From Rhodobacter capsulatus SB 1003 (GTDB lineage: Bacteria; Pseudomonadota; Alphaproteobacteria; Rhodobacterales; Rhodobacteraceae), in assembly GCF_000021865.1 (NCBI RefSeq), contig NC_014035.1:60001-92000 (forward strand): a stretch of DNA of 32,000 nt. Reading direction: 5' to 3'. The number at the start of each line of letters is the position of its first letter. Position 1 is the stretch's first letter. The notes beneath the pieces were generated by a model, which was not told the origin of the DNA, searched no databases, and saw only the letters and a list, made by a program, of their open reading frames with translations. A program made the position numbers and the translations under genes. Shown here piece by piece: positions 3,498-17,192 of the stretch.

Positions 3498-3916
3498 CAG
3501 GAAATCATCCGGACAGGGGCCGCGCACGGGGGGCCGCGGGCAGCGGGAACAGGATCGGGCCGCGCGGGCATCTCGGCGCGGGCGGTCATCCAGAGGGGGT
3601 CGAAACGGGTGTCGGCGACCTTTGTCAGCCGGGCCGGAGGCGGCACCAGCGCCCCGGCGGCGGCGGCAAGACAATCGGGGCAGGCGGCGCAATCGGCGGC
3701 GCCGGGCGCCGGGGCGGCATGGCCCTCGGCATCAAGCCAGATCACGTCGCGCGCGCCCGCATCCGAGCAGATTTCCATCGGTTGCAGCCCCGCCTGCGCC
3801 GCGCAGGCCGCCGCCCCCCAGGCGCCCGCCAGCACCAGAGCCAGACAGAGGCTCAGGCGAAGGGCCAGGGCGGCCAGCGGCGTCAGACGCCGCGCAAGGG
3901 GCGCGGTGAAGGTCAT
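3497..3916 (-). CDS. Small secreted Cys-rich protein, DUF2946-like, in the nosC position upstream of nosR
   Basis: 139 aa with a signal-like N-terminus (LAALALRLSLCLALVLAGAWGAAA). It then has EICSDAG, DCAACPDC and a PPP tract, the layout I associate with DUF2946. Its TGA overlaps the nosR ATG (TGATG, 1-nt overlap), suggesting translational coupling. Confidence 0.6.
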   Translation of the reverse strand: MTFTAPLARRLTPLAALALRLSLCLALVLAGAWGAAACAAQAGLQPMEICSDAGARDVIWLDAEGHAAPAPGAADCAACPDCLAAAAGALVPPPARLTKVADTRFDPLWMTARAEMPARPDPVPAARGPPCAAPVRMIS

Positions 3917-4042: not shown

Positions 4043-4543
4043 TTGCGCCTGACGACCTTCACCGATTACGCCCTGCGCCTGCTGATCTATACCGCCGGCA
4101 AGCCCGAGAGCCGGGTGACCATCGACGAGGTGGCGGAGTGGTTCGCAATCTCGCGGGCGCATGTGAAGAAGGTGGTTCTGACCCTGTCGCGCGGCGGATT
4201 TCTGCTGTCGAGCAAGGGGCGGAACGGCGGTTTCACCCTGGCGCGGCCGCCCGGAGAGATCAATCTGTCAGAGGTGATTCTGGCGACCGAGCCGGATTTC
4301 GGCCTGTTCGAATGCTATCTGACCGGCAATGAATGCCGGATCTCCCGTCCCTGTCGGTTGCCCAATGTCGCCAACGAGGCGCTAGCGGCCTTTCTGGCAG
4401 TGCTGGGCAAATACACCCTGGCCGATGCGATGCTGCGGCCTGCCTATTTCCTGCTGCCCGCCGCGGGCCCGCAACCGCTGCGCGGCCCGAAAAGACCCGC
4501 AACACAGGACGGGCCCGGCTTGAGCCCGGGCAAAGTGTCATAA
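4043..4543 (+). CDS. nsrR: Rrf2-family Fe-S transcriptional repressor, NsrR-like (NO-responsive)
   Basis: In frame with track ORF 3719..4543. I place the start at TTG 4043 (GAGG at 4033-4036), giving (M)RLTTFTDYALRLLIYTAGKPE. This matches the NsrR-type N-terminus FTDYxLRxLIY. The three-Cys cluster is CYLTGNECRISRPC. Divergent from the nos genes. Confidence 0.75.
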   Translation: MRLTTFTDYALRLLIYTAGKPESRVTIDEVAEWFAISRAHVKKVVLTLSRGGFLLSSKGRNGGFTLARPPGEINLSEVILATEPDFGLFECYLTGNECRISRPCRLPNVANEALAAFLAVLGKYTLADAMLRPAYFLLPAAGPQPLRGPKRPATQDGPGLSPGKVS

Positions 4544-4757: not shown

Positions 4758-5078
4758 ATGGTTACCGACGACACACTTGCGGAACTGGCGAAATCGCTGG
4801 CGCATCCGGCCCGGCTGCGCATCCTGCGGGTGCTGCTTGCCACGCCGGGCTGCATCGGCGGCGAGATCGTGGAGGCGGTCGGGCTGGCGCAATCTACGGT
4901 GTCGGAACATCTGCGCATCCTGAAGGCGGCCGGGATCATAACCGGCGAAATCGACGGGCCGCGCATCTGCTACGCACTCAGCCCCCCCGCCCTTGCACCT
5001 CTGGGCGCGTTCATTGCCAGCCTGACGCCCCCGCCCGAGGGGGCGTGCTGCCTGCCCGCCGGAAAGGACATTCCATGA
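4758..5078 (+). CDS. arsR: ArsR/SmtB-family metalloregulator with C-terminal vicinal cysteines
   Basis: LAHPARLRILRVLL...STVSEHLRILKAAGII winged-HTH signature. It lacks the CVC motif but has a C-terminal GACCLPAG, reminiscent of the C-terminal As(III) site type. Its stop overlaps the acr3 start (ATGA). Confidence 0.85.
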   Translation: MVTDDTLAELAKSLAHPARLRILRVLLATPGCIGGEIVEAVGLAQSTVSEHLRILKAAGIITGEIDGPRICYALSPPALAPLGAFIASLTPPPEGACCLPAGKDIP

Positions 5079-6121
5079 GCCTCTTTGAACGCTATCTGAC
5101 GCTTTGGGTTGCATTGTGCATCGGTGCGGGGATCGCGCTGGGGCAGATGTTCCCCGCCATCTTTCGCGTGATCGGCGCGACGGAGATCGCCCGCGTCAAC
5201 CTGCCCGTCGCGGTGCTGATCTGGCTGATGATCATTCCGATGCTGCTCAAGATCGACTTCGCCGCGCTGGGTCAGGTGACCCGCCACTGGCGCGGCGTCG
5301 GGGTGACGCTGTTCATCAACTGGGCGGTGAAGCCGTTTTCCATGGCGGCGCTGGGGTGGCTGTTCCTGTCGGTCCTGTTCCGCCCCTTCCTGCCTGCGGA
5401 TCAGATCGAAAGCTACATCGCGGGGCTGATCCTGCTCGCCGCCGCCCCCTGCACGGCGATGGTCTTCGTCTGGTCGAACCTCTCGAACGGCGAGCCGCAT
5501 TTCACGCTGAGCCAGGTGGCGCTGAACGATGCGATCATGGTCGTGGCTTTCGCGCCGATCGTGGCGTTTCTGCTGGGTCTTTCGGCGATCACCGTGCCCT
5601 GGGCGACGCTGGTGCTGTCGGTGGTGCTTTACATCCTTGTGCCGGTGGCGGTGGCGCAATGGATCCGCCGCCGCAAGCTGGCCGAAGGCGGCGAAGCGCT
5701 GCCACGGCTGCTCTCGCGCCTTGGTCCGGTGTCGATCCTTGCGCTGCTCACCACGCTGGTCTTGCTCTTCGGCTTTCAGGGCGAACAGATTCTGGCCCAG
5801 CCCCTGGTGATCGCGCTTCTCGCGGTGCCGATCCTCATTCAGGTCTATTTCAACGCGGCGCTTGCCTATTGGCTCAACCGCGTGACCGGCGAGGCGCATT
5901 GCGTTGCCGCCCCCTCGGCGCTGATCGGGGCGTCGAATTTCTTCGAACTCGCGGTGGCGGCGGCAATCAGCCTGTTCGGCTTCACCTCGGGGGCCGCTTT
6001 GGCCACGGTGGTCGGCGTGCTGATCGAGGTGCCGGTGATGCTCTCGGTGGTGCGGATCGTGGCCCGCACCAAGCCCTGGTATGAAAGCGGCCCCGCCGTG
6101 CGGGCGCGGGCCGGGCATTGA
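5075..6121 (+). CDS. acr3: ACR3-family arsenite efflux permease
   Basis: MSLFERYLTLWVALCIGAGIALG...LLAAAPCTAMVFVWS...IGASNFFELAVAAAISLFG are hallmark ACR3 segments. Start chosen at the ATG at 5075 inside track ORF 5045..6121. Confidence 0.9.
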   Translation: MSLFERYLTLWVALCIGAGIALGQMFPAIFRVIGATEIARVNLPVAVLIWLMIIPMLLKIDFAALGQVTRHWRGVGVTLFINWAVKPFSMAALGWLFLSVLFRPFLPADQIESYIAGLILLAAAPCTAMVFVWSNLSNGEPHFTLSQVALNDAIMVVAFAPIVAFLLGLSAITVPWATLVLSVVLYILVPVAVAQWIRRRKLAEGGEALPRLLSRLGPVSILALLTTLVLLFGFQGEQILAQPLVIALLAVPILIQVYFNAALAYWLNRVTGEAHCVAAPSALIGASNFFELAVAAAISLFGFTSGAALATVVGVLIEVPVMLSVVRIVARTKPWYESGPAVRARAGH

Positions 6122-6123
6122 TC

Positions 6124-6513
6124 TCAGCAGCACGTCCCGGAGCCGCAGCCGCAACCACCCGCGCTGACGGCTGTGGCGCTGCCGGTGACGGGAAAGCCCC
6201 GGGCGACCCAGCGGGCCAGCCCGTGCTTCATGTTCGTCACCTTCGCATAGCCCTGATACATCAGGAAATAGGTGGCCTTGAGGCTGCGATCACCAGTGGC
6301 ACAGGCGAGGATCACCTCGCGGTCGCGCGGGATTTCGGCAAAGCGGGCCTCGAACTGGCTCAGCGGAATCGTCATCACCGCGCAGCCCGCAAAGCCGCAG
6401 GCGGCAACCTCGTCCGCCTCGCGCACATCGACGAGCAGCGCCCCCTCGGCCAGCCGCTTTTGCGCCGTGGTCGGGCAGGCGTCGCGCGCCTCGGGCAGAT
6501 CGACCTGGGTCAT
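6124..6513 (-). CDS. Single-domain rhodanese sulfurtransferase with Cys-rich C-terminal tail
   Basis: Active-site loop ILACATGDRS (C-X4-R, rhodanese type). The last 11 residues are GGCGCGSGTCC. The start is 1 nt after the stop of the upstream thioredoxin-like gene. Confidence 0.8.
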   Translation of the reverse strand: MTQVDLPEARDACPTTAQKRLAEGALLVDVREADEVAACGFAGCAVMTIPLSQFEARFAEIPRDREVILACATGDRSLKATYFLMYQGYAKVTNMKHGLARWVARGFPVTGSATAVSAGGCGCGSGTCC

Positions 6514-6514
6514 C

Positions 6515-6754
6515 TCACGCCTCCTCTTGCAGCCAGACCAGCACCTGATCGCGGCTCGGCACCGCGCCCTTGTGAACGACCTTTTCCCCCACCACCACGG
6601 CAGGCGTCGTCATCACGCCATAGCCGACGATCTGGCGCATCTCCTCGATCTTGACGATCTCGACCGGCTTGCCCGCCTCGGCCGCCACCTGCGCGATCAG
6701 ATCGGCGGTGGCCTTGCACTTGGCGCAGCCCGTGCCCAGCACCTTGATTTCCAT
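6515..6754 (-). CDS. Thioredoxin-fold redox-active disulfide protein (small CxxC protein usually paired with ArsP/DUF318 permeases)
   Basis: 79 aa: MEIKVLGTGCAKCK...VMTTPAVVV. CxxC sits at residues 10-13. Size and motif fit the 'redox-active disulfide protein 2' family. Confidence 0.8.
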   Translation of the reverse strand: MEIKVLGTGCAKCKATADLIAQVAAEAGKPVEIVKIEEMRQIVGYGVMTTPAVVVGEKVVHKGAVPSRDQVLVWLQEEA

Positions 6755-6765
6755 GATTTACCCTT

Positions 6766-7821
6766 TCAGAACAGAAAGTTGAACAGATAGCCCACGGCCA
6801 GGATGCCGCTGCCCACCACCCCCACGAAGACGCCGATCAACCGCAGGCTGAGGACCTGTTTCAGGATGATCATCTCGGGCAGCGAAAGCGCGATCACCGA
6901 CATCATGAAGGCGAGAGCGGTGCCCAAGGCCGCGCCCTTGCCCAAAAGCGCCTCGATGATCGGGATCACGCCGGCGGCATTGGTATACATCGGAATGCCG
7001 ATTGCCACGGCGGCGGGCACCGACCACCAGGCCTCCGCCCCCATGATCCGCGCCATCAGATCCTCGGGCACATAGCCGTGGATCAGCGCCCCCATGCCGA
7101 TCCCGGCAAGGATCCAGATCCAGACCCGACCGACGATCTCGCGCAGCGCCGCAAGGCCCAGGCGGTAGCGGTCCACCATGGTCAGCCGGTCGCCCTCGAA
7201 GGCCGCGGGGGCGCTGGCGCCGGAATGAATGTCGCGCACCCAATCCTGCAACCAGCTCTCCAGATGCAGCCGCCCGATCACCCAGCCCGAGACGATGGCG
7301 ACGGCGAGCCCGAAGAAGAAATAGACCGCCGCCACCTGCCAGCCGACGAGACCGAAGAGCAGCACCAGCGCCACCTCATTCACCATCGGCGCCGAGATCA
7401 GGAAGGAAAAAGTGACCCCCAAAGGCACCCCCGCCGAGACAAGCCCGATGAAGAGCGGCACCGCCGAGCAGGAGCAAAACGGTGTCACCACGCCCAGGGC
7501 CGCGGCCATGACATTGCCCACCCCCTCGCGCCGCCCGGCCAGCAGGGCGCGGGTGCGCTCGGGCGAGAACCAGCTGCGCAGCAAGCCCATCAAGAACACG
7601 ATGAGCGAAAGCAGCATCAGCACCTTGGGCAGATCGTAAAGGAAAAACGCGATGGCCTCGCCGGTGCGGCTGTGACGATCAATGGGCAAGAGCGCGGTCA
7701 GCGCCTCGGCGGCGGGGGAGAGTTGGCGGTAGACCAGCGCCCAGAAGATCAACGCCAGCGCAAGGCCAAGGTGCCAGGCCCAGGCAGGGGCGGGGCGTGT
7801 CGAAAGCGTTTGATCGCTCAT
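6766..7821 (-). CDS. ArsP-like / DUF318 family permease
   Basis: Polytopic membrane protein with the VVTPFCSCSAVPLF motif characteristic of this permease family. Start set at the ATG at 7821 (MSDQTLSTRPAPAWAW), which overlaps the stop of the upstream arsR (ATGA). Confidence 0.8.
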   Translation of the reverse strand: MSDQTLSTRPAPAWAWHLGLALALIFWALVYRQLSPAAEALTALLPIDRHSRTGEAIAFFLYDLPKVLMLLSLIVFLMGLLRSWFSPERTRALLAGRREGVGNVMAAALGVVTPFCSCSAVPLFIGLVSAGVPLGVTFSFLISAPMVNEVALVLLFGLVGWQVAAVYFFFGLAVAIVSGWVIGRLHLESWLQDWVRDIHSGASAPAAFEGDRLTMVDRYRLGLAALREIVGRVWIWILAGIGMGALIHGYVPEDLMARIMGAEAWWSVPAAVAIGIPMYTNAAGVIPIIEALLGKGAALGTALAFMMSVIALSLPEMIILKQVLSLRLIGVFVGVVGSGILAVGYLFNFLF

Positions 7822-8108
7822 GCGGCGCTCCTTTCCGCGGTGGCGGCGGCGGCGAGAACGGCGGTCAGCACGGCGCGGATCTCGGGCGGCATCTCCGGGT
7901 TCAGCCGATAGCGCACCCATTGCGCGTCGCGCCGGTCCACCACCAGCCCCGCCTGTTTCAGCGCCTGCATGTGCCGTGACATCCGGCTTTGCGTGGCATC
8001 AAGCGCCGCCATCAACTCGCAGACGCAATGCTCGCGCCCGTCCGCAAGACGGATCATCGCCGCCAACCGGGTCGGCTCGGCCAAGGCCGTCAGAACGGAA
8101 AGAATCAT
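7818..8108 (-). CDS. arsR: ArsR-family As(III)-responsive repressor (canonical CVC type)
   Basis: MILSVLTALAEPTRLAAMIRLADGREHCVCELMAALDATQSRMSRHMQALKQAGLV contains the (E)xCVC(E/D)L As(III)-binding motif. Start at the ATG at 8108, preceded by a GAGGTG Shine-Dalgarno. Confidence 0.85.
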   Translation of the reverse strand: MILSVLTALAEPTRLAAMIRLADGREHCVCELMAALDATQSRMSRHMQALKQAGLVVDRRDAQWVRYRLNPEMPPEIRAVLTAVLAAAATAERSAA

Positions 8109-8145
8109 CGGACACCTCTTGCGCTTTCGCGCATATTCGCCCTGG

Positions 8146-8180
8146 CGCATGCCATGCGTCAAGGCGCATATGGATGCGCC
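8146..8180. promoter_or_regulatory. Two palindromes with a GCGCAT core in the arsJ-arsR intergenic region (terminator and/or operator candidates)
   Basis: CGCATG-C-CATGCG lies at 8146-8158. GGCGCAT-ATGG-ATGCGCC lies at 8163-8180, abutting the arsJ stop. A third, TGCGC-TTTC-GCGCA, lies at 8120-8133. Confidence 0.3.
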
Positions 8181-9425
8181 TCAGTCCTGCGCCAGCCTGC
8201 GGGCGGCCCACCAGCTGGTTGCGGCCATGGCGCCTGCGGTGGCAAGGCACAGCGCCAGCCCGCCGAACTGGCAGCTGAGCCCCGACAAAAGCGTGCCGAT
8301 CAGCCGCCCGGCCGCATTGGCCATGTAGTAAAAACCGACATCGCGGGTGATCCGCCGCGCATCGCCAAAGGCGAGGATCAGATAGGAATGGACCGAGGAA
8401 TTGACCGCGAAGACGAAGCCGAAGGCGAGCAGTCCGATGAGCAGCGTTGCGGTCAGCCAGGGCGCGGGGGCGGGGGCGATCAGCACCGCGGCTGCCAGCC
8501 CGAAGGGGATCGGCACCAGATAGCCCGCCCAGGTGATCGCCTTCGTCACGATCGCGGCCTCGGGCTGGGATTTCGCGCCCAAGATGCGGGGGGCAAAGGC
8601 CTGCACCGCGCCGTAGGCGATGATCCAGAGCGCCATGAAACCGCCGGTCAGAAAGAACGCCTCGCGGCGGCCCTCGGCCGTGCCGTCGGAGAGAACCGCC
8701 TGGAAATAGACCGGAAGCCCGACGACGAACCAGACATCGCGGGCGCCAAAAAGGAACATCCGCGCCAGCGAAAGCCGGTTCACCTGCGGGTCCTGCGACC
8801 GCCAGCCGCCCCAGGCCTCGTCGGATTTCATCTTCCCGGGCAGGCCCTTGGGCAGGAAGGCCACGACCGCGATCAGGATCGCCGCCAGAAGCCCCGCCAT
8901 GCCCCAGATCGCCGGCTTGAAGCCGACAAGCGCCAGAAGCGCCGCGCCAAGGAAGAAGCCGAGCCCCTTCACCGCGTTCTTTGACCCGGTCAGCGCCGCC
9001 ACCCAGCGAAACAGCCCGCCCTCGCCGCTGGGGGCGAGCAGTTTCACCGCCGATTTCGACGACATCTTGGCCAGATCCTTGGCAACGCCCGAGACACCCT
9101 GCACCGCCATCACGAAAGCGACCGAGGCGGGGATCGACCAGCCCGGGTCCAGCTGCGTCAGCGCGACCAGCGCCGCGACCTGCAGGCCAAGCCCGCCGTA
9201 AAGCGTGGCGGCCAGGCCGAACCGCGCCGCCAGCCAGCCCGCGCCAAGATTGGTGGCAATGCCCGCGACTTCGTAAAGCAGAAACAGCCAGGCCAGCGCG
9301 ACCGGGCTGAAGCCCAGCCCGTTGAACTGCAACAGCACCAGCATCCGCAGCGCGCCATCGGTGAGCATGAAGGCCCAATAGGCGGCGGTGACGGCAGCGT
9401 AGGCGCGGATCGGATTGGCGCTCAC
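8181..9425 (-). CDS. arsJ: ArsJ, MFS exporter of 1-arseno-3-phosphoglycerate
   Basis: The segments [51 protein letters not shown] and [14 protein letters not shown] match my recollection of ArsJ. It is directly downstream of a GAPDH gene. I propose the GTG start at 9425, overlapping the GAPDH TGA (GTGA). The track ORF extends to 9479. Confidence 0.85.
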
Positions 9426-10429
9426 AACGACCCCGCCACCATTCGGGCGATATCGGCCATCCGGCAGACATAGCCCCATTCGTTGTCATACCAGGCGTAA
9501 AGCTTGAGCTGCGTGCCATTGACCACCATCGTCGAGGGGCCGTCGATCACCGCCGAGCGCGGGTCGTTGGTGAAATCCGACGACACCAGCGGCCGCGTCT
9601 CGAAACCGAGGATGCCGTTCAGCCCTCCCTCGGCGGCGGTCTGCAGAAGGCTGTTCACCTCTGCGACCGTGGTCGGGCGGTCAAGTTCGAAGACGCAATC
9701 GGTCAGCGAGGCATTCAAAAGCGGCACCCGGACGGCATGGCCATTGAGCCGCCCTTTCAGCTCGGGATAGATCAGCGTGATCGCCGTGGCCGAGCCGGTG
9801 GTGGTGGGAATGAGGTTCATCAGCGCCGACCGCGCCCGGCGCAGGTCTTTCGCGGGGCGGTCGACGATCGTTTGCGTGTTCGTCACGTCATGCAGTGTGG
9901 TGATGGATCCGTGTTTGATTCCAAGCGCTTCGTGGATCACCTTCACGATGGGGGCCAGGCAGTTGGTGGTGCAGGACGCCGCCGTGATCAGCCGCTGGCT
10001 GCCATCGTAAAGCACGTGGTTCACGCCATAGACGAGGTTCAGCGCGCCCGTATCCTTGACCGGGGCCGAAACGACGACCTTGCGCACGCCTGCATCGAAA
10101 TAGGGCTGGACCTTGGCCGCGGTCTTGAACTGCCCGGTGCAATCGAGCACCAGATCGACCCCGATCTCGGCCAGGGGCAGGGCTTCAAGGGTCTTTTCCC
10201 GCGTCAGCCGGATGCGCTGCCCCGCGATCTGAAGCCCGGTTTCGGTGGCGGCAACCGGGGTCGGCCAGCGGCCATGCACCGTGTCGAACTCGAGCAGCAG
10301 CGCATGGGTTTCGGCGTCGCCCATGGCGTCGTTCAAAAGCACGATCTCGGGCCCGCGCCCCAGATCGATGAGCCGCCGCAAGAGCAGTTTTCCCATCCGG
10401 CCCAAGCCGTTGATCGCAAGTCTCGCCAT
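9422..10429 (-). CDS. gap: Glyceraldehyde-3-phosphate dehydrogenase, ArsJ-associated paralogue
   Basis: [12 protein letters not shown]-binding N-terminus, catalytic [10 protein letters not shown]-terminal WYDNEWGY. Embedded between arsR::arsC and arsJ. Confidence 0.9.
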
Positions 10430-10432
10430 GGC

Positions 10433-11278
10433 TCAGGCCTTTTCGGGCAGGGCGCCGATCGCATCGACGCGGGTTTGCAGCGCCAGCCGGTCGAGCGTGG
10501 CAAAGGGCAGGTCGACAAAGGCGGCAATGCGGCGGCGCAGCGCCCCGTAGGTCTGGGCGAAAACCAGCGCGCGTTCGGCCTCGGTGCCGGTGGCCTTGAC
10601 CGGATCGGGCAGGCCCCAATGGCCGGTGATCGGCTGACCGGGCCAGGGCGGGCAGTCCTCGGCCGCCGCCGTATCGCAGACGGTGAAGACGAACTCCATC
10701 TGCGGCGCGGCGGGGCCCTGGAACTCCGACAGATGCTTGGCGCGCAGGCCCCCGGTGTCATGGCCGTTGCGGCTCAGCACCTCGAGCGCGAAAGGGTTGA
10801 TCGCGGTCCCGGGCCGCGTTCCGGCGGAATGGGCGGTGAACTTGCCCGCGCCCAGATCGCGCAGGAGCGCCTCGGCAAAGATCGAGCGGGCGGAATTGCC
10901 CGAGCAGATGAAAAGCACGTTGAAGGGCGTGTCGGGCATGGGATTTGCCTTTTCATGAAGAGCTTTGGGCATCAGGTCGGGCCGGGCCCGGCCCAGATCG
11001 AGGGCGAGATAGCCGATCAGGGATTCGGTTTTGTGAAGATCGACGGCGTAGAAAAGCGACCGCCCCTGCCGGGTGACTGTGACCAGCCCGCAAGCAGTCA
11101 GATCCGCCAGATGATGCGAGAGGGTGTTTGGCTTCAGCCCCAGCGCCGCGGCGATTTCGGTGGGCCGCACGCCCTGCGGCGCAAAGCGCATGAGCATCCG
11201 GAACACCGACAGGCGACCGGGATGGCCAAGACAGGCAAAGGCCGCGGCGGCCTCGGGGGTGGGGCAAGTGTTTTCCAT
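10433..11278 (-). CDS. arsC: Fusion protein: ArsR-type winged HTH + LMW-PTP-type (thioredoxin-coupled) arsenate reductase ArsC
   Basis: The N-terminal ~110 aa contain LGHPGRLSVFRMLM...NTLSHHLADLTACGLV (ArsR HTH). The C-terminal part has FNVLFICSGNSARS (P-loop Cys) and TVCDTAAAEDCP (the second and third redox Cys). Confidence 0.85.
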   Translation of the reverse strand: MENTCPTPEAAAAFACLGHPGRLSVFRMLMRFAPQGVRPTEIAAALGLKPNTLSHHLADLTACGLVTVTRQGRSLFYAVDLHKTESLIGYLALDLGRARPDLMPKALHEKANPMPDTPFNVLFICSGNSARSIFAEALLRDLGAGKFTAHSAGTRPGTAINPFALEVLSRNGHDTGGLRAKHLSEFQGPAAPQMEFVFTVCDTAAAEDCPPWPGQPITGHWGLPDPVKATGTEAERALVFAQTYGALRRRIAAFVDLPFATLDRLALQTRVDAIGALPEKA

Positions 11279-11296: not shown

Positions 11297-11344
11297 GCAA
11301 TCCCCCCGTCCAGTGAAGCTTTCATGACAATCCGGCGACAGGCG

Positions 11345-12307
11345 TCACGTCTCGCAGATGACGCGGCCGATGTCGCGCAGATCGTACCCCCCGATGGCGC
11401 CGAATTCGGCCTTGAAGGCCTGCGAGCGCAGCACCGACAGGAGCGCCTGCACCTCGGGGCGGGGCAGATGTTCGGTCTTCACCACAAGGTCGTAGCGTTC
11501 GCGCTGCATCGGCAGAAAGGCGACCCCATCCACCTGCCGCGCGATCTTTTCCGTGCCCACCGCGATATCGGCCTCGCCCCGTCCCACGGCGCTTGCCAGC
11601 GCCAGATGCGAGGCGCTTTCCTGCCCGTAGCCGGCAATCCGGCTACCGGAAATCCCGAGCCGTCGCAGGTGTTCATCCAGCAGCACCCGCGACCCCGCCC
11701 CCTTTTCGCGGTTGATCATGCGGATGTCGTCGCGGCCGAAATCCGCCCAGCCGGTGATCCGCTTCGGGTTCCCTTCGGCCACATAAAGCCCCTGCATCCG
11801 CCAGGTGACATTGACGATCGTGCAGGCAATGCCCGGCAGCAGCGCCCGCACATGCGCAATGTTGTAGCTGTCGCTGGCGCCGTCCCACAGATGCGCCGTC
11901 GCGACGCCGACCCGGTCATGATACAGCGACACAAGGCTGTCGTAGCTGCCGATATAGGCCCGAAGCGCCATCACCCCGCGCTGCCGCAGCAGGTTCGAAA
12001 GCACGTCAAGGATCAGATCCTGCCCGCAGATCACGAAGCCCGCACTGCCCGGCCGCTGCGCGCCAAGGTCGAAATGACGGCCCTCCTACAGCACCACCGG
12101 CCCGGGGCGGGCGGCGGGGCAAGCCGTTCCCTCGACATAGGCGCGCAGCTGCGCCGCGCTGAAGCGGATCTTGCGGCCGACCTTGTAATGGCCGATCGCC
12201 CCCGCCTTGATCAGCGCATAGACCCCGCTTTTCGAGATCTTGAGCCGCAGCGCGACCTCTTCGGCGGTCATGGCATCTGTCGGGGCATCGCTTGCAGCAT
12301 CGGACAT
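11345..12307 (-). pseudogene. HTH_17 (excisionase/MerR-like) + PBP_like oxyanion-binding-domain regulator (TunR/ModE-like class), interrupted by an in-frame TAG
   Basis: Track ORFs 12086..12307 (MTAEEVALRLKISKSGVYALIKAGAIGHYKVGRKIRF) and 11345..12034 (ICGQDLILDVLSNLL...HLALASAVGRGEADIAVG) are in the same frame (12307-12034=273). They are separated only by a TAG at 12086-12088 and 17 sense codons. Confidence 0.65.
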
Positions 12308-12503
12308 GGCACGGGCCTTTCTGCGATTTCGTGATGGTTCGCCCTATTCCGCGCATTCACGATCTTCCATCGGCCCGAGTCAATTCGTTTTCGCTTTACT
12401 TCGCGCCGATATCTGGCTTGATCCGGCGAGCAGACAGCAAAACGGGTGCAAAAGCTGCATTTTCGCCCCGTTTCGCCTCGGTTCACGCATCGAAAGGTCC
12501 GCC

Positions 12504-13166
12504 ATGCCGCAGCCCTTCGCACCCCTGCCGCCTTTCTCTCGGGCGGGGTCATTGGCACCCTGGGCGGGTTGATCGGCCTTGGCGGTGCCGATGGCCGATC
12601 TGGCGGCGCAATGGCCGGTGATCGTGAATCTGCTGGCGGGCAGTCTGGCCGGGGCGTGGTTTGGCGCAGGCTGGGCGACGCGTTTGCGCTCTGACATCCT
12701 GTTCAAGGTGATCGCGGCGCTGATGGCGGGAATTGCCGTGGTGCTTCTGACCGGCCACGGCGTGGCGTCGGGCGCGGCCCTCGTCACCGGCGGCGCGCAG
12801 ATCGGTCTGGGCGTGGTCGCGGGCTTTGCGATCGGCATCGTCGCGGCGCTGATGGGGGTGGCGGGGGGCGAATTGCTGATCCCGACGCTGGTGATCCTGT
12901 TCGGGGCCGACATCAAGCTGGCGGGGTCGCTCTCGCTTGCGGTCAGCCTGCCGACGATGCTGGTGGGTTTTGCCCGCTACAGCCGCGATCAGGCCTTTGC
13001 CACGCTGGGCCGCAACCGGATTTTCGTCGCGGTGATGGCGGCAGGCTCGATCGCAGGCAGCTTTCTGGGCGGGCATCTGCTGGGCCTTGTGCCCGAGGCG
13101 GTCCTGCTGCCCGGCCTCGCGCTCATTCTGGTGATTTCCGCCTTCAAGGTCTGGCGGCACAAGTAG
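12504..13166 (+). pseudogene. TSUP (TauE/SafE, DUF81) family anion exporter, apparently disrupted near the 5' end
   Basis: The 195-aa ORF 12579..13166 has the second-repeat motif MGVAGGELLIPTL. The expected first-repeat motif FLSGGVIGTLGGLIGLGGA is encoded at 12533-12589 in a different frame. It is followed directly by ADLAAQWPVIVNLL in the main frame. This implies a non-multiple-of-3 internal deletion. Confidence 0.5.
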
Positions 13167-13603: not shown

Positions 13604-15388
13604 ATGCGGATTTCGCGAGTAAGAATAGCCAACTTTGCAAATTTCTCCGATCTCGACGTCGAGACGGGCGAGAGCATCGTCATCGTCGGTGAAAACAAGG
13701 TCGGCAAGAGCAACTTCATCCGCGCCCTGCAACTGATCCTCGACCCCGGGCTCTCGGAACGAGACCGCCAACTCGGACTCGAACATTTCTGGGATGGCTT
13801 AGGAGAGGACAAGCTTGGCGAGGCGATCGAAATCTCAATCGATCTGACGGATTTCACCAACGATCCGCGTCTGATGGCGCATCTCAACGACTGCGTGGTG
13901 GACCCGGGCCCGCCAATGGTCGCGCGCCTTACGTACCGCTTCCAGCCAAAGGCAAATCTCGGCCGTGATCCCGAAAGTCTGGCTGACTACGAGTACGTCA
14001 TTTTCGGCGGCGACGATCCCGATATGGCGATCGGGTCATCATTGCGCCGGATGCTCCCGCTCGACGTTCAGGTGGCGCTACGTGACGCAGAGAAAGACCT
14101 GTCGATCTGGCGAAATTCGCCGCTAAGGCCGTTGATCGAACAGTTGGCAACTTCGCTGGACGAAGACGCTCGCGACGAAATCCAGGAACAAGTAAACGAG
14201 GCTCAAGCCGAGCTTGCCGGTCATGCCGAGGTGGTTGCTACCGCGCAGCGGATCAGCGACCGCCTGATCGCTATTGCGGGTGAGCAGCATGCCGTTCCGC
14301 TCACGCTAGGCCTAGCTCCGACGCGGGTCGATGCGCTACTGCGTAGCCTGCGCCTGCTGATCGACAATGGTGCGCGCAGTATTGGCGATGCCAGCCTCGG
14401 CACCGCCAACCTGATCTTTCTGGCGTTGAAGAGCCTCGAGTTGGATCGTTTGGTGACTGACGGCGAGCGTGACCACACCTTCTTCGTGGTCGAAGAGCCC
14501 GAGGCGCATCTTCATCCGCATGTCCAGCGGCTGGTCTATCGGTATTTCCTCGGCGGCGCTGCAGATGACCAAGAAGATGCTCCGCCTCTTACGACCATCC
14601 TCACGACGCACTCGCCGCATATCGCCAGCGTCACACCGATCCGCTCGATCGTCCTGCTCCGCTACGACGCCGGCGAGGATGCGACGACCGCCGTCTCGAC
14701 AGCGACGGCTCCGCTGACGGAGCGCGATGAGGCCGACCTCCAGCGTTACATCGATGTCAGCCGCGGCGAGATCTTCTTTGCGCGAGGCGTCATCCTCGTT
14801 GAGGGCGATGCCGAGCGGTTTCTCATTCCCGCATTCGCTGAGGCGCTGGACATCCCGCTCGACATGCTGGGCATCACGGTCTGCTCGGTGAGCGGCACCA
14901 ATTTCACGCCCTATGTGAAGCTGCTGGGTCCGCAGGGCCTGAACATTCCGCACGTCATCCTGACAGATCGCGATCCGAACGGCACGAGGCCGCCGCTGGT
15001 ACGCCGCCGCCTCATCGAGGTGCTGAATCTGGTCGAGAACGGGGTGGACTACACGCCGCTCGACGCCGATGCCGTGATCGCCCGCGCGGAGCCACTCGGC
15101 TATTTCGTGAATGGCAACACACTAGAGCCGGAACTGTTCTGTGGCGGCCTCGCGGACGCGATGCAGGAGATCATAGAAGAGGAACTGCCAATCAATCAGG
15201 CGACCCGCGACCTGCTGCAAGGCTGGGTCGACGACACCGACACGCTCGATGAGGAGAGGCTGATCAAACTCATCGAACGGATCGGCAAGGGACGCTTCGC
15301 GCAGGCGCTGGCGCCGTACGTCGAGGAGGATACGTGCCCGGACTATATCCGCAAGGCGCTGGAGTACATTCGCGATGCCCTTGCGTAG
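13604..15388 (+). CDS. OLD-family ATP-dependent endonuclease (ABC-type ATPase + TOPRIM), GajA-like / class 2 OLD
   Basis: Walker A is VGENKVGKSN, Walker B is FFVVEEPEAHLHP, followed by TTHSPHI. The TOPRIM glutamate is in ILVEGDAERFLIP and the acidic cluster in HVILTDRDPNG. 594 aa. Confidence 0.85.
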   Translation: MRISRVRIANFANFSDLDVETGESIVIVGENKVGKSNFIRALQLILDPGLSERDRQLGLEHFWDGLGEDKLGEAIEISIDLTDFTNDPRLMAHLNDCVVDPGPPMVARLTYRFQPKANLGRDPESLADYEYVIFGGDDPDMAIGSSLRRMLPLDVQVALRDAEKDLSIWRNSPLRPLIEQLATSLDEDARDEIQEQVNEAQAELAGHAEVVATAQRISDRLIAIAGEQHAVPLTLGLAPTRVDALLRSLRLLIDNGARSIGDASLGTANLIFLALKSLELDRLVTDGERDHTFFVVEEPEAHLHPHVQRLVYRYFLGGAADDQEDAPPLTTILTTHSPHIASVTPIRSIVLLRYDAGEDATTAVSTATAPLTERDEADLQRYIDVSRGEIFFARGVILVEGDAERFLIPAFAEALDIPLDMLGITVCSVSGTNFTPYVKLLGPQGLNIPHVILTDRDPNGTRPPLVRRRLIEVLNLVENGVDYTPLDADAVIARAEPLGYFVNGNTLEPELFCGGLADAMQEIIEEELPINQATRDLLQGWVDDTDTLDEERLIKLIERIGKGRFAQALAPYVEEDTCPDYIRKALEYIRDALA

Positions 15389-17192
15389 TGTCAGCGCCGC
15401 CTATCTCGCGCAAGCAGCGGACTTGGCCAGTAACCCGGGCCAGCAAGCCGCCTATGACTCGACCGGCCATTGTGTCGTGCTCGCCGGCCCCGGCAGCGGC
15501 AAGACCAAGACGCTGGTGCTCAAGCTTGCCCGGATCATGGCTGAAGACGTACGCGCGCCACGCGGCGCGGCATGCATCACCTACAGCCAGGAGTGCGCGC
15601 GCGAGCTGACGCGCCGACTGGAGCGGCTGGGCCTGAGAGAGGCGCCGAACCTCTTCATCGGCACGGTCCATGGTTTTTGTCTGAGGCATCTGTTGATGCC
15701 CTATGGCCGTCTTGCCAATCTGCCGGTGCCGTTCCCGCTTGCGGTCGCCACGCAACGACAGAGCGACCAGGCGATGAATCGGGTCGGGGACAGGCTCTTC
15801 GGCGTAGGTCATCCGAACAAGCCGATGGATCTGGGGCGTCATCGGCGATCGATATTGGACAGGACGTCGGAAGCCTGGACAGATGAGGAGGAGCTTGCGG
15901 CATGGGCCGAGGGCTACGAAGCCGAGCTGCGGCGAACAGGTCTCGTCGATTTCGATGACCTCGTGATTTTCGGCCAGCGTCTGGTGTCGGAACACGACTG
16001 GGTGCTTCCGCTGCTCCAAGCGAAATTCCCAGTCCTAGCGGTCGATGAATATCAGGATCTCGGCGTTGCGCTGCACCGCATAGTCAAGCGCGTCGCCTTC
16101 GACGGGGGTGTCCGCCTCTTTGCGGTCGGAGATCCGGATCAGTCGATCTACGGCTTCACGGGTGCGGACGGAGCTTTGCTGGAGGAGCTAGCGGAGCGCG
16201 ACGATGTCGAGCGCGTTCAGCTTCAACTCAATTATCGCTCGGCCACGCGGATTGTCAGTGCCTCCGAAATGGCGCTCGGCGAGGATCGCGGCTACCGATC
16301 GAACGACCCGGATCGCCAGGCGGTGATCGCCTTCCTTGAATGCGACGATGGCCTGGTAGGCCAGGCCGCGCACGCGGTCGCCGAGATCATCCCAGCGGCG
16401 CTTGCCGCCAAACCGGGACGTGCGCTCGGCGACATCGCCATCCTCTACCGGGACTATCGTGCCGGCGACGTGGTGGCGGAAGCGGTCGCGTCCGCCGGTC
16501 TCGACTTTGTGCGGGTCGACACGGCCGCGCCTTATCGCAAGGTCGCACTCACGAGCTGGATCGAGGACTGCGCCGCCTGGTGCTCGGGGGGCTGGCGCAA
16601 AGCACAGCCGCAATTGCGTGGCTTGTTGGACCGCTGGATCGGTTTCCATCGCGCACGGATCTCGGACGCGCAAGCCAGCGCGGAATTGCAAAGCCTCACC
16701 CGGCTTCTCTGGTCGCTCCGGGTTGAAGAGGGGCTGGCCCGAAACTTCGTAGCGGCGCTGCGAGCAGGAATGCTCGACGCGCTGATGGTGGACGAGCCGA
16801 GCCTTGCCGATCAGCGCGAACAGGTCGAGCGGATGTCAGCGGCAGTGGCCGTGGGTGGGCCGCTTGCGGACCTTGACCTCGCAAGTCTTGCTGGGCGTGA
16901 TGGCTCACCACTTCACCTCAATTTGTTGACGCTGCACTCTGCAAAGGGGTGCGAGTACGATGTGGTCATCATGGTGGGGCTCGATCTTGGCAGCCTGCCA
17001 TGGCGTAACGAAGCACCTGCGGCCCAGCGTGAGAGTCGACGTCTGTTCTATGTGGGGCTAACGCGGGCCCGCGATGAAATCCACATGCTATATTCTGGTT
17101 TCGTCGATACCCGCTTCGGGAGGAAGTATTGGGGACGCTCTCCGTTCCTGAACGAGCTTGAGGCGCGAATGCGGGAAGCCGAAGGCGACTAG
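15375..17192 (+). CDS. UvrD/PcrA/Rep-like SF1 helicase, GajB-like partner of the OLD nuclease
   Basis: Helicase motifs: LAGPGSGKTKTLV (motif I), VDEYQDL (motif II), LNYRS, TLHSAKGCEYDVVIM, FYVGLTRARDE (motif VI). The ATG at 15375 lies 14 nt inside the upstream ORF. Confidence 0.85.
   Translation: MPLRSVSAAYLAQAADLASNPGQQAAYDSTGHCVVLAGPGSGKTKTLVLKLARIMAEDVRAPRGAACITYSQECARELTRRLERLGLREAPNLFIGTVHGFCLRHLLMPYGRLANLPVPFPLAVATQRQSDQAMNRVGDRLFGVGHPNKPMDLGRHRRSILDRTSEAWTDEEELAAWAEGYEAELRRTGLVDFDDLVIFGQRLVSEHDWVLPLLQAKFPVLAVDEYQDLGVALHRIVKRVAFDGGVRLFAVGDPDQSIYGFTGADGALLEELAERDDVERVQLQLNYRSATRIVSASEMALGEDRGYRSNDPDRQAVIAFLECDDGLVGQAAHAVAEIIPAALAAKPGRALGDIAILYRDYRAGDVVAEAVASAGLDFVRVDTAAPYRKVALTSWIEDCAAWCSGGWRKAQPQLRGLLDRWIGFHRARISDAQASAELQSLTRLLWSLRVEEGLARNFVAALRAGMLDALMVDEPSLADQREQVERMSAAVAVGGPLADLDLASLAGRDGSPLHLNLLTLHSAKGCEYDVVIMVGLDLGSLPWRNEAPAAQRESRRLFYVGLTRARDEIHMLYSGFVDTRFGRKYWGRSPFLNELEARMREAEGD

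Follow-up and report, generated by a model that had tools for sequence, protein, structure and literature searches.

Few detoxification systems are as widespread as arsenic resistance operons, for which new ars genes continue to be described. The described systems closest to the locus analyzed here are operons that combine an ArsR repressor with an ArsP_1 permease and a thioredoxin-like ArsE protein, such as the ArsR5 operon of Pseudodesulfovibrio mercurii ND132, which was reported to be up-regulated by arsenic (bioRxiv 10.1101/2022.10.17.512643). In addition, two distinct arsP clusters of probably different function have been described (PMC6205960). The present study deals with a stretch of 32,000 nucleotides (nt) from Rhodobacter capsulatus SB 1003 (contig NC_014035.1, positions 60,001 to 92,000), which we refer to as the window and which belongs to the second of two genome contigs (total 3,871,920 bases). 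It contains an operon of this kind that is extended by a gene for a rhodanese with a cysteine-rich C-terminal tail (Table 1). The ArsP_1 and ArsE families and ArsR–ArsP–ArsE operons are already known, and the permease and the thioredoxin-like protein of the window already carry these family names in the annotation, which had been missed in a preliminary description of this DNA; what is new is the cysteine-tailed rhodanese family. This family is unnamed in Pfam, NCBIfam, and the Atlas clusters beyond "rhodanese-like domain-containing protein", and our literature search found no publication on it or on its gene combination, in agreement with the earlier statement that the combination is biochemically uncharacterized. 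As the rhodanese always occurs together with a thioredoxin-like protein and an arsenic-type pump, its role is probably that of a so far undescribed accessory factor in the detoxification of arsenic.

The four genes are separated by −4, 11, and 1 nt, with the ATG of the permease gene overlapping the stop codon of arsR. This tight packing, together with the family matches, bears out the single ArsR-headed operon of arsenic type that the preliminary description had proposed, and the reading frames and spacings of all four genes held, as did the cysteine motifs it had singled out in the regulator, the permease, the 79-residue protein, and the last nine residues of the rhodanese. In family scans, the regulator matched PF01022 (HTH_5, E = 5e-12) and NF033788 (85.1 bits, cut-off 55), and the rhodanese matched PF00581 (E = 5e-11, 43.3 bits, cut-off 22.2). 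The permease belongs to the ArsP_1/DUF318 family, as claimed earlier (PF03773, E = 4.1e-69, 233 bits, cut-off 32.3), and the 79-residue protein to the ArsE family (PF13192; TIGR00412, "MTH895/ArsE family", 91.6 bits, cut-off 62). The CVC of ArsR, the CSC of the permease, and the CAKC of ArsE are invariant in 11 of 11 orthologous cassettes, and the GC-x-x-C of the ArsE-type protein is unchanged in 43 sequences. The CVC of ArsR lies in the region of the DNA-binding helix, as in ArsR/SmtB regulators with an As(III)-type site in alpha-3, and no other cysteine of ArsR is conserved in the 11 orthologues; the ArsR of R773 carries the motif ELCVCDLC, and its third cysteine is absent here. Together with the cysteine tail of the rhodanese, these motifs are evidently not due to chance. 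A persulfide-sensing regulator of the BigR/SqrR type was also considered for ArsR and rejected (NF040642, 39.8 bits versus 155; the only conserved cysteines are those of the adjacent C-V-C).

Table 1. Features of the rhodanese cassette and its surroundings, in positions of the window.
Feature	Position	Strand	Remarks
arsR	7818..8108	-	96-residue ArsR/SmtB repressor, two-Cys C-V-C site EHCVCEL
Permease gene, ArsP_1/DUF318	6766..7821	-	351 residues, TPFCSCS; PF03773 match
ArsE-type thioredoxin-like gene	6515..6754	-	79 residues, GCAKC, rhodanese-linked subtype
Rhodanese gene	6124..6513	-	129 residues; CATGDRS loop, CGCGSGTCC end; PF00581
Cys13 codon of the rhodanese, motif E-[VIA]-C-P-T-[TS]	6475..6477	-	invariant in 121/121 close homologues and 43/43 sequences across phyla
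Active-site loop C71-A-T-G-D-R-S77 (CX4R-S) of the rhodanese	6283..6303	-	Cys in 120/121 sequences
Low-complexity Cys tail of the rhodanese, SATAVSAGGCGCGSGTCC	6127..6180	-	four Cys in the final nine residues (6127..6153)
Promoter/operator candidate	8120..8172	-	from conservation; inside the 72-nt gap after the arsJ stop
Upstream context	8181..11278	-	ArsR-LMWP ArsC fusion 11278..10433; ArsJ-associated GAPDH 10429..9422; ArsJ 9479..8181
arsR-acr3 pair	4758..6121	+	convergent with rhodanese; TIGR00832 acr3, 374.5 bits, cut-off 282.8

The protein collection contained 520 homologues of the rhodanese at E ≤ 1e-3, which fall into hundreds of protein clusters, and a pattern scan of genome contigs revealed at least 484 loci in a collection with one genome per species. 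The family extends over five or more phyla and also occurs on conjugative plasmids. The gene is nevertheless sporadic, as it was present in 7 of the 400 genomes of a sample of the family of the window (400 genera), and in a sample of the class none of 400 genomes had it at E ≤ 1e-20. The closest named relatives of the whole cassette are those of Rhodobacter capsulatus SP36 and R. viridis.

For the tail and the other hallmarks, 77 complete genes were evaluated, which belong to Alpha-, Beta-, and Gammaproteobacteria, Bacteroidota, Chlorobiota, and Deinococcota. At least one Cys–Cys pair occurs in the low-complexity tail at 76 of these 77 loci and at least two at 62, and the protein ends with -CC at 64. 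The N-terminal cysteine of the C-P-T motif is retained in 76/77 and the CX4R[ST] loop is present in 74/77 of the loci. Past the last helix, the homologous tails comprise 19–63 residues and are rich in Ala, Ser, Gly, Pro, and Thr; the tail in the window is of the shortest kind, which is common to R. capsulatus and R. viridis. In the preliminary description, a tail that was not conserved in orthologues had been named as an argument against its proposal, and as the cysteine tail is kept in the homologues, this argument falls away. In contrast to the invariant Cys13, Cys44 is conserved in Alphaproteobacteria only, as judged from a comparison of 43 sequences. The AlphaFold2 model of the protein (mean predicted local distance difference test score, pLDDT, 75.9) shows a rhodanese fold with a disordered tail (pLDDT about 35). 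As a side aspect, a 52% identical rhodanese (L021, G728:C18, about 7946–8380, minus strand) was found outside any ArsP/ArsE cassette. Its tail is rich in Cys and His (GCGCGGHDHAGGGCCGGHGHGHEHGGGCGCH), which suggests a different metal preference.

Linkage of the rhodanese with an ArsE-type gene and an ArsP_1 permease was found across 79 loci from the groups listed above. In almost all of them, the rhodanese gene is preceded at a distance of about 250 nt by the gene of ArsE type, with the ArsP_1 permease gene in the same operon, and the full ArsR–ArsP_1–thioredoxin–rhodanese cassette recurs in 10 of the 12 loci first examined. This obligate genetic coupling of the rhodanese to ArsE and ArsP_1 is unusually strict. 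The gene order is ArsP–ArsE–rhodanese in Proteobacteria and ArsE–rhodanese–ArsP in Bacteroidota and Chlorobiota. A census of Pfam domains in the neighborhood was informative for Bacteroidota and not for the high-GC proteobacterial loci, for which naive calling of open reading frames (ORFs) was poor. The Bacteroidota operon consists of genes for ArsR with a Cys–Cys site, ArsE, the rhodanese, ArsP, a DinB-type protein, ArsF (NF040494), and ArsG (NF040495); its ArsR (L048–L100, about 630 nt upstream of the rhodanese) has vicinal cysteines (..CCYHGD..) and a third conserved cysteine, and no C-V-C. In Betaproteobacteria, a SoxH-related metallohydrolase is encoded between ArsP and ArsE, and the genes that come next encode a thioredoxin, a DsbD-like protein, OsmC, and a transporter of the cation-diffusion type. 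We examined this hydrolase, which has a metallo-beta-lactamase (MBL) fold, as a candidate persulfide dioxygenase and rejected it, since its best matches were SoxH-related hydrolases, below the cut-off. In many Alphaproteobacteria, genes for OsmC and a cation-diffusion transporter follow the cassette, and sometimes a DUF2798 gene is inserted before the rhodanese.

With respect to genomic surroundings, the cassette adjoins ars islands in R. viridis, in R. capsulatus SP36, and on the plasmid of the strain NT-26. On the latter (L132; Pseudorhizobium banfieldiae NT-26, plasmid NT26_p1, 8379–10618), the permease–thioredoxin–rhodanese trio is followed by genes for OsmC and a heavy-metal P-type ATPase, and its neighbors are phoB/pstS and an extensive ars island with arsR, two copies of arsC, acr3, arsO, arsK, and arsH. 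The plasmid is conjugative, and the strain is an arsenite oxidizer.

The rhodanese is an optional add-on to the cassette that comes with its own ArsE subtype. In the family sample, 51 of the 400 genera had an orthologous permease, about 30 of them at 62% identity or more, and a rhodanese gene was adjacent in only 5 of these approximately 30 close orthologues. The cassettes without rhodanese keep a similar ArsR (60–83% identity) and a similar ArsP (63–76%), and their ArsE is of another subtype that has a CKRC motif and is only 28–41% identical to that of the window, whereas the rhodanese-linked ArsE proteins have CAKC and are 73–82% identical. In a maximum-likelihood tree, the 24 rhodanese-less ArsE proteins clustered together (support 100/100), and no rhodanese-linked ArsE protein fell into this clade; the rhodanese-linked ArsE proteins of the window's family grouped with rhodanese-linked ones from other classes. 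The tree thus shows ArsE and the rhodanese moving as a pair. As the rhodanese-less set comes from one family, the switch of the ArsE subtype may have been a single replacement event.

We also predicted a complex of the rhodanese with ArsE. It scored 0.36, compared with 0.00 for the best of three controls. Among reference cases, 58 of 80 solved complexes and 2 of 110 mismatched pairs reached the mark applied to such predictions; at scores of 0.60 or below, only 7 of the 80 solved complexes and both passing mismatches did so. The prediction runs agreed in at least 86% of the contacts, with a partner pLDDT of at least 74. In this sense, the prediction lends weak support to a rhodanese–ArsE complex.

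A further line of evidence came from gene fusions. At one locus (L086), arsR is followed by a gene for a 349-residue fusion (9983–11029) that consists of the rhodanese, the cysteine tail, and a full ArsD domain (PF06953, E = 5.6e-34), and then by arsA. A search with this fusion as query gave rhodanese–ArsD (P0122–P0126) and ArsD–rhodanese proteins (P0127–P0130, P0143), which form about ten 90%-identity clusters from four sources; that a search with the window protein gave no such longer forms was due to a limit of the word index and not to their absence. Fusions of ArsE with the rhodanese (PF13192 and PF00581) exist as well (P0166, P0230). The fusion genes of L086, L134, and L135 are located just upstream of arsA, either directly or one small gene away, and L135 additionally has ArsM, ArsC, and Acr3. 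On one stromatolite contig, an ArsD–rhodanese gene is followed, in this order, by a small ORF, ArsA, ArsR, a methyltransferase, an LMWP ArsC, and Acr3. ArsD and ArsE, which both have a thioredoxin fold, thus take the same position in front of the rhodanese. We regard this as the strongest evidence that the rhodanese family handles arsenic, and it hints that ArsE may be a metalloid-handling protein rather than a general reductant. The same search also revealed widespread fusions of ArsD with domains of AhpD-like type (PF02627) and with ArsM-type methyltransferases.

Taken as a whole, we favor the view, to which we assign a probability of roughly 0.45, that the cassette is a self-contained, ArsR-repressed efflux system whose substrate is a trivalent, thiophilic metalloid, with As(III) or trivalent organoarsenicals as the likeliest candidates, and that the rhodanese is a dedicated cytosolic partner of ArsE. 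Upon metalloid binding, the two-Cys ArsR would leave the conserved operator. The rhodanese would capture the metalloid on its thiols, namely on the invariant N-terminal cysteine, usually on the active-site cysteine, and on the Cys–Cys pairs of the tail, with the disordered tail acting as a "fishing line" of such pairs. ArsE would take the place that is held elsewhere by the thioredoxin-fold chaperone ArsD, and it would either keep the thiols of the rhodanese reduced or receive the metalloid, which the ArsP_1 permease would then take over at its C-S-C site and export. Every component of the cassette offers a two-thiol site (CVC, CSC, CxxC, and CC). The substrate, the binding by thiols, the direction of the hand-off, and the contribution of the CX4R site are what we infer in this model, and by analogy with ArsD and ArsA, the best reading of the rhodanese is that of an accessory thiol relay that, together with ArsE, would feed the permease.

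Several observations weigh against this efflux model. About 96% of the family members have retained the CX4R loop, which suggests a catalysis that goes beyond a pure chaperone function. The ArsP of C. jejuni is an efflux permease for methylarsenite, MAs(III), and for Rox(III). It was reported not to export inorganic arsenite (PMC6205960). The permease of the window reaches no NCBIfam equivalog, and its best matches, both below the cut-off, are SaoE (128.7 bits versus 325) and the SO_0444 Cu/Zn exporter (98.6 bits versus 300). In other genomes, the cassette is usually apart from canonical ars genes, often with genes for OsmC and a cation-diffusion transporter next to it, and Acr3 or ArsC was found within 10 kb at only about 12 of the 79 loci. 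Considering these neighbors, which are present after the rhodanese at about 25 of the 79 loci, and the P-type ATPase gene that follows the cassette in NT-26, other thiophilic metals are possible substrates. It is therefore conceivable, but in our view improbable, that the cassette does not serve arsenic and instead deals with Cd, Zn, Hg, Cu, Pb, or reactive sulfur species, in which case its placement in ars islands would be due to co-selection on mobile DNA. The CVC site itself would be compatible with this alternative, as Cd/Pb sensors of the ArsR family can carry CVC sites, too, but the ArsR of the cassette does not have the N-terminal cysteines of CadC-type sensors and is far below the cut-offs of the BigR and CmtR models. 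Furthermore, the recurrent fusions of the rhodanese to ArsD beside ArsA, the NCBIfam assignments of ArsE, ArsF, and ArsG in the Bacteroidota operons, and the recurrence of the cassette next to arsJ, acr3, and arsC in three phyla all argue for arsenic.

The active site bears on the question of which chemistry the rhodanese could contribute. The nearest solved structures, which were the top matches in both sequence and fold comparison, are the rhodanese domains of persulfide dioxygenase fusions (3tp9, 5ve3), coenzyme A (CoA)-persulfide reductases, YgaP (2moi), and GlpE (1gmx), and no Cdc25 or Acr2 structure was among the sequence or fold matches. The six-residue cysteine loop, CATGDR-S, is of the kind found in sulfurtransferases, so that the C-X4-R loop of sulfurtransferase type reported in the preliminary description was correctly recognized. 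The protein is below every NCBIfam equivalog cut-off, including those of GlpE (28.5 bits versus 102) and PspE (17.2 versus 102). An Acr2/Cdc25-type arsenate reductase was considered as well and rejected, because the loop is C-X4-R and not the seven-residue H-C-X5-R and because the structural neighbors differ. The catalytic cysteine was lost in four separate lineages (L020 of the window's genus, L066 of Rubrivivax, L094 of Schleiferiaceae, and P0065 of Maritimibacter), and in all of them Cys13 and the terminal CC are still present and the operon is intact; the loop arginine is also missing in a few family members. On a plasmid of Cereibacter sphaeroides 2.4.1 (L133:4895–5212), the rhodanese is cut off just before the catalytic cysteine and annotated as a 105-residue hypothetical protein, and the ArsR–permease–thioredoxin cassette around it is otherwise intact. 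As the tail and the operon were kept when the catalytic cysteine was lost, these lineages suggest that the protein is constrained most strongly in thiol binding or hand-off. The high overall conservation of the CX4R loop, in turn, suggests an added chemical step in most members, in which either As(V) could be reduced or sulfur could be transferred to or from an arsenical.

As for As(V) reduction, the rhodanese could be an arsenate or pentavalent-organoarsenical reductase of the rhodanese type, in which the CX4R cysteine would attack As(V), electrons would come from ArsE via a cysteine relay (Cys13 or the tail), and the resulting As(III) would be handed to ArsP or ArsD. Thioredoxin-coupled ArsC works via a disulfide cascade, and the extra conserved cysteines of the rhodanese resemble this cascade. 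A dedicated thioredoxin-fold partner is always adjacent, and the stand-alone cassettes have no ArsC. The plant HAC1 arsenate reductases are rhodanese-like and also have a CX4R site (PMC9454679), and therefore the loop length does not speak against a reductase. However, rhodanese operons often also contain an LMWP ArsC (in the window and at L135, L039, L042, L065, and L069), the catalytic cysteine is gone in the four lineages mentioned above, and the nearest solved structures are persulfide-type rhodaneses. In addition, the reduction of pentavalent organoarsenicals would raise their toxicity unless it were tightly coupled to efflux. We therefore consider a reductase unlikely, even if it is slightly ahead of the other alternatives; if true, the protein would be a bacterial counterpart of plant HAC1 that completes a minimal operon of regulator, pump, and reductase.

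Sulfur transfer would fit the six-residue loop and the closest solved relatives, namely the rhodanese domains of persulfide dioxygenase fusions, CoA-persulfide reductases, YgaP, and GlpE. A persulfide on the rhodanese could thiolate As(III) or MAs(III) before export, which covers the thiolation idea of the preliminary description, or, in the reverse direction, sulfane sulfur could be taken from thioarsenates, as it would be from thiosulfate, with release of arsenite and reduction of the persulfide by ArsE. GlpE is the classical case of a rhodanese that pairs with thioredoxin, and the cassette has the same kind of pairing. A number of the source records have titles that point to arsenic-rich salt flats or a sulfidic cave, which is anecdotal and without a denominator, and the betaproteobacterial operons add the SoxH-related metallohydrolase. 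On the other hand, this MBL protein has no persulfide-dioxygenase match in NCBIfam, sulfur-metabolism genes are not consistently linked, the catalytic cysteine is missing from the same four lineages, and we found no publication on rhodanese activity toward thioarsenates. We thus regard sulfur transfer as a doubtful explanation. In a more specific form, which we consider more doubtful still, the rhodanese would be a thioarsenate desulfurase: the CX4R cysteine would accept the sulfane sulfur of monothioarsenate, a structural analogue of thiosulfate, the arsenite thereby freed would be trapped by the CC tail and passed to ArsE and ArsP, and ArsE would reduce the persulfide. Thioarsenic species are abundant in sulfidic, arsenic-rich waters, and such an enzyme would belong to the first dedicated system for their detoxification.

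The region upstream of arsR indicates that the cassette is likely an autonomous unit under its own ArsR. It contains a −35-like element (TTGACG, 8162..8157), a weak −10-like element (GAATAT, 8138..8133), and a candidate operator of ATATGCGC repeats with the inverted repeat TGCGC-N4-GCGCA (8133..8120). In an alignment of the regions upstream of 11 orthologous cassettes, which comprised the window and ten others (from Pannonibacter, Albidovulum, Rhodospirillum, Neoroseomonas, and others), TTG and GC..AT..CG columns were invariant, and the consensus was TTGACGCATG-N13-TATnTGCG-N-GCGCATATGCGC. A strict sigma-70 scan found no promoter site upstream of arsR, and the candidate promoter and operator were therefore assigned from conservation only. 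As this control region is conserved, the cassette appears to be an ArsR-controlled unit of its own and not the mere tail of the arsJ operon. The start codon that gives an ArsR of 96 residues is supported by the orthologues, which also have 96 residues, and by an AGAGG 7 nt upstream. An alternative start, a TTG at 8162, was rejected, as it belongs to the TTGAC of the conserved −35-like element.

In the window, the cassette is embedded in an arsenic island with arsJ, a gene for glyceraldehyde-3-phosphate dehydrogenase (GAPDH), arsC, and acr3. The ArsJ-associated GAPDH (NF033735, 531.7 bits) and ArsJ (NF033734, 507.2 bits) are both above their NCBIfam cut-offs, and the ArsR–ArsC fusion protein matched HTH_5 and LMWPc. 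On the other side, the stop codons of acr3 and the rhodanese gene are convergent and only 2 nt apart (6121–6124). No terminator-like hairpin was seen between them, and thus both operons either read into each other or end within the opposing gene. A gene for an Rrf2-family regulator (4061–4543, plus strand) is located just 5′ of the arsR–acr3 pair; the long ORF that was called there from position 3719 probably begins too far upstream. An ORF for an anion exporter of the TauE/SafE type (12579–13166, plus strand) matched profile positions 60–236 only and therefore looks N-terminally short, and the adjoining ORF of 336 residues (11324–12334, plus strand) had no Pfam match. The arsenic island is also adjoined by a gene pair on the plus strand (13604–17192) in which an ATPase gene with AAA_15 and OLD-like TOPRIM domains (594 residues) overlaps a UvrD-type helicase gene (605 residues) by 14 nt, as is typical of Gabija-like anti-phage defense.

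The rhodanese is a concrete candidate for a missing accessory step of the poorly understood ArsP/ArsE pathway, and the genetically amenable Rhodobacter offers a tractable test case for distinguishing hand-off, reduction, and sulfur transfer. The plant HAC1/ATQ1 proteins act on arsenic through a rhodanese-like domain that likewise has a CX4R site (PMC9454679), but they are eukaryotic and have no Cys–Cys tail, ArsE partner, or operon. GlpE, PspE, the rhodanese domain of YgaP, and the persulfide dioxygenase fusions have in common with it the fold, the six-residue cysteine loop, and the pairing with a thioredoxin-type acceptor, whereas the protein of the window adds the invariant N-terminal cysteine, the Cys–Cys tail, and a fixed arsenic-type operon, and its catalytic cysteine is dispensable in some lineages. 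ArsD (PF06953), the As(III) metallochaperone of ArsA with its Cys12-Cys13-Cys18 site, is likewise small, cytosolic, and an optional accessory to its pump, and it uses vicinal cysteine pairs, including C-terminal ones. In contrast to ArsD, the protein of the window has a rhodanese fold, with no relation in sequence (no PF06953 match) or fold, it keeps the CX4R loop, and its pump is a secondary permease and not ArsA. The closest systems remain the ArsR–ArsP–ArsE modules of the ND132 type and ArsEFG of Shewanella putrefaciens 200, which share with the window the ArsR repressor, the ArsP_1 permease with its C-x-C, and the TIGR00412 protein. Their descriptions include no rhodanese, and the window cassette, in turn, has neither ArsF (NF040494) nor ArsG (NF040495). 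The likeness to ArsEFG is most evident in Bacteroidota, where the gene for the relative of the rhodanese is flanked by those for ArsE and ArsP and where ArsF and ArsG are encoded further downstream. Compared with the ArsR–ArsP–ArsE modules, the ArsE of the window represents a separate subtype that travels only with the rhodanese.

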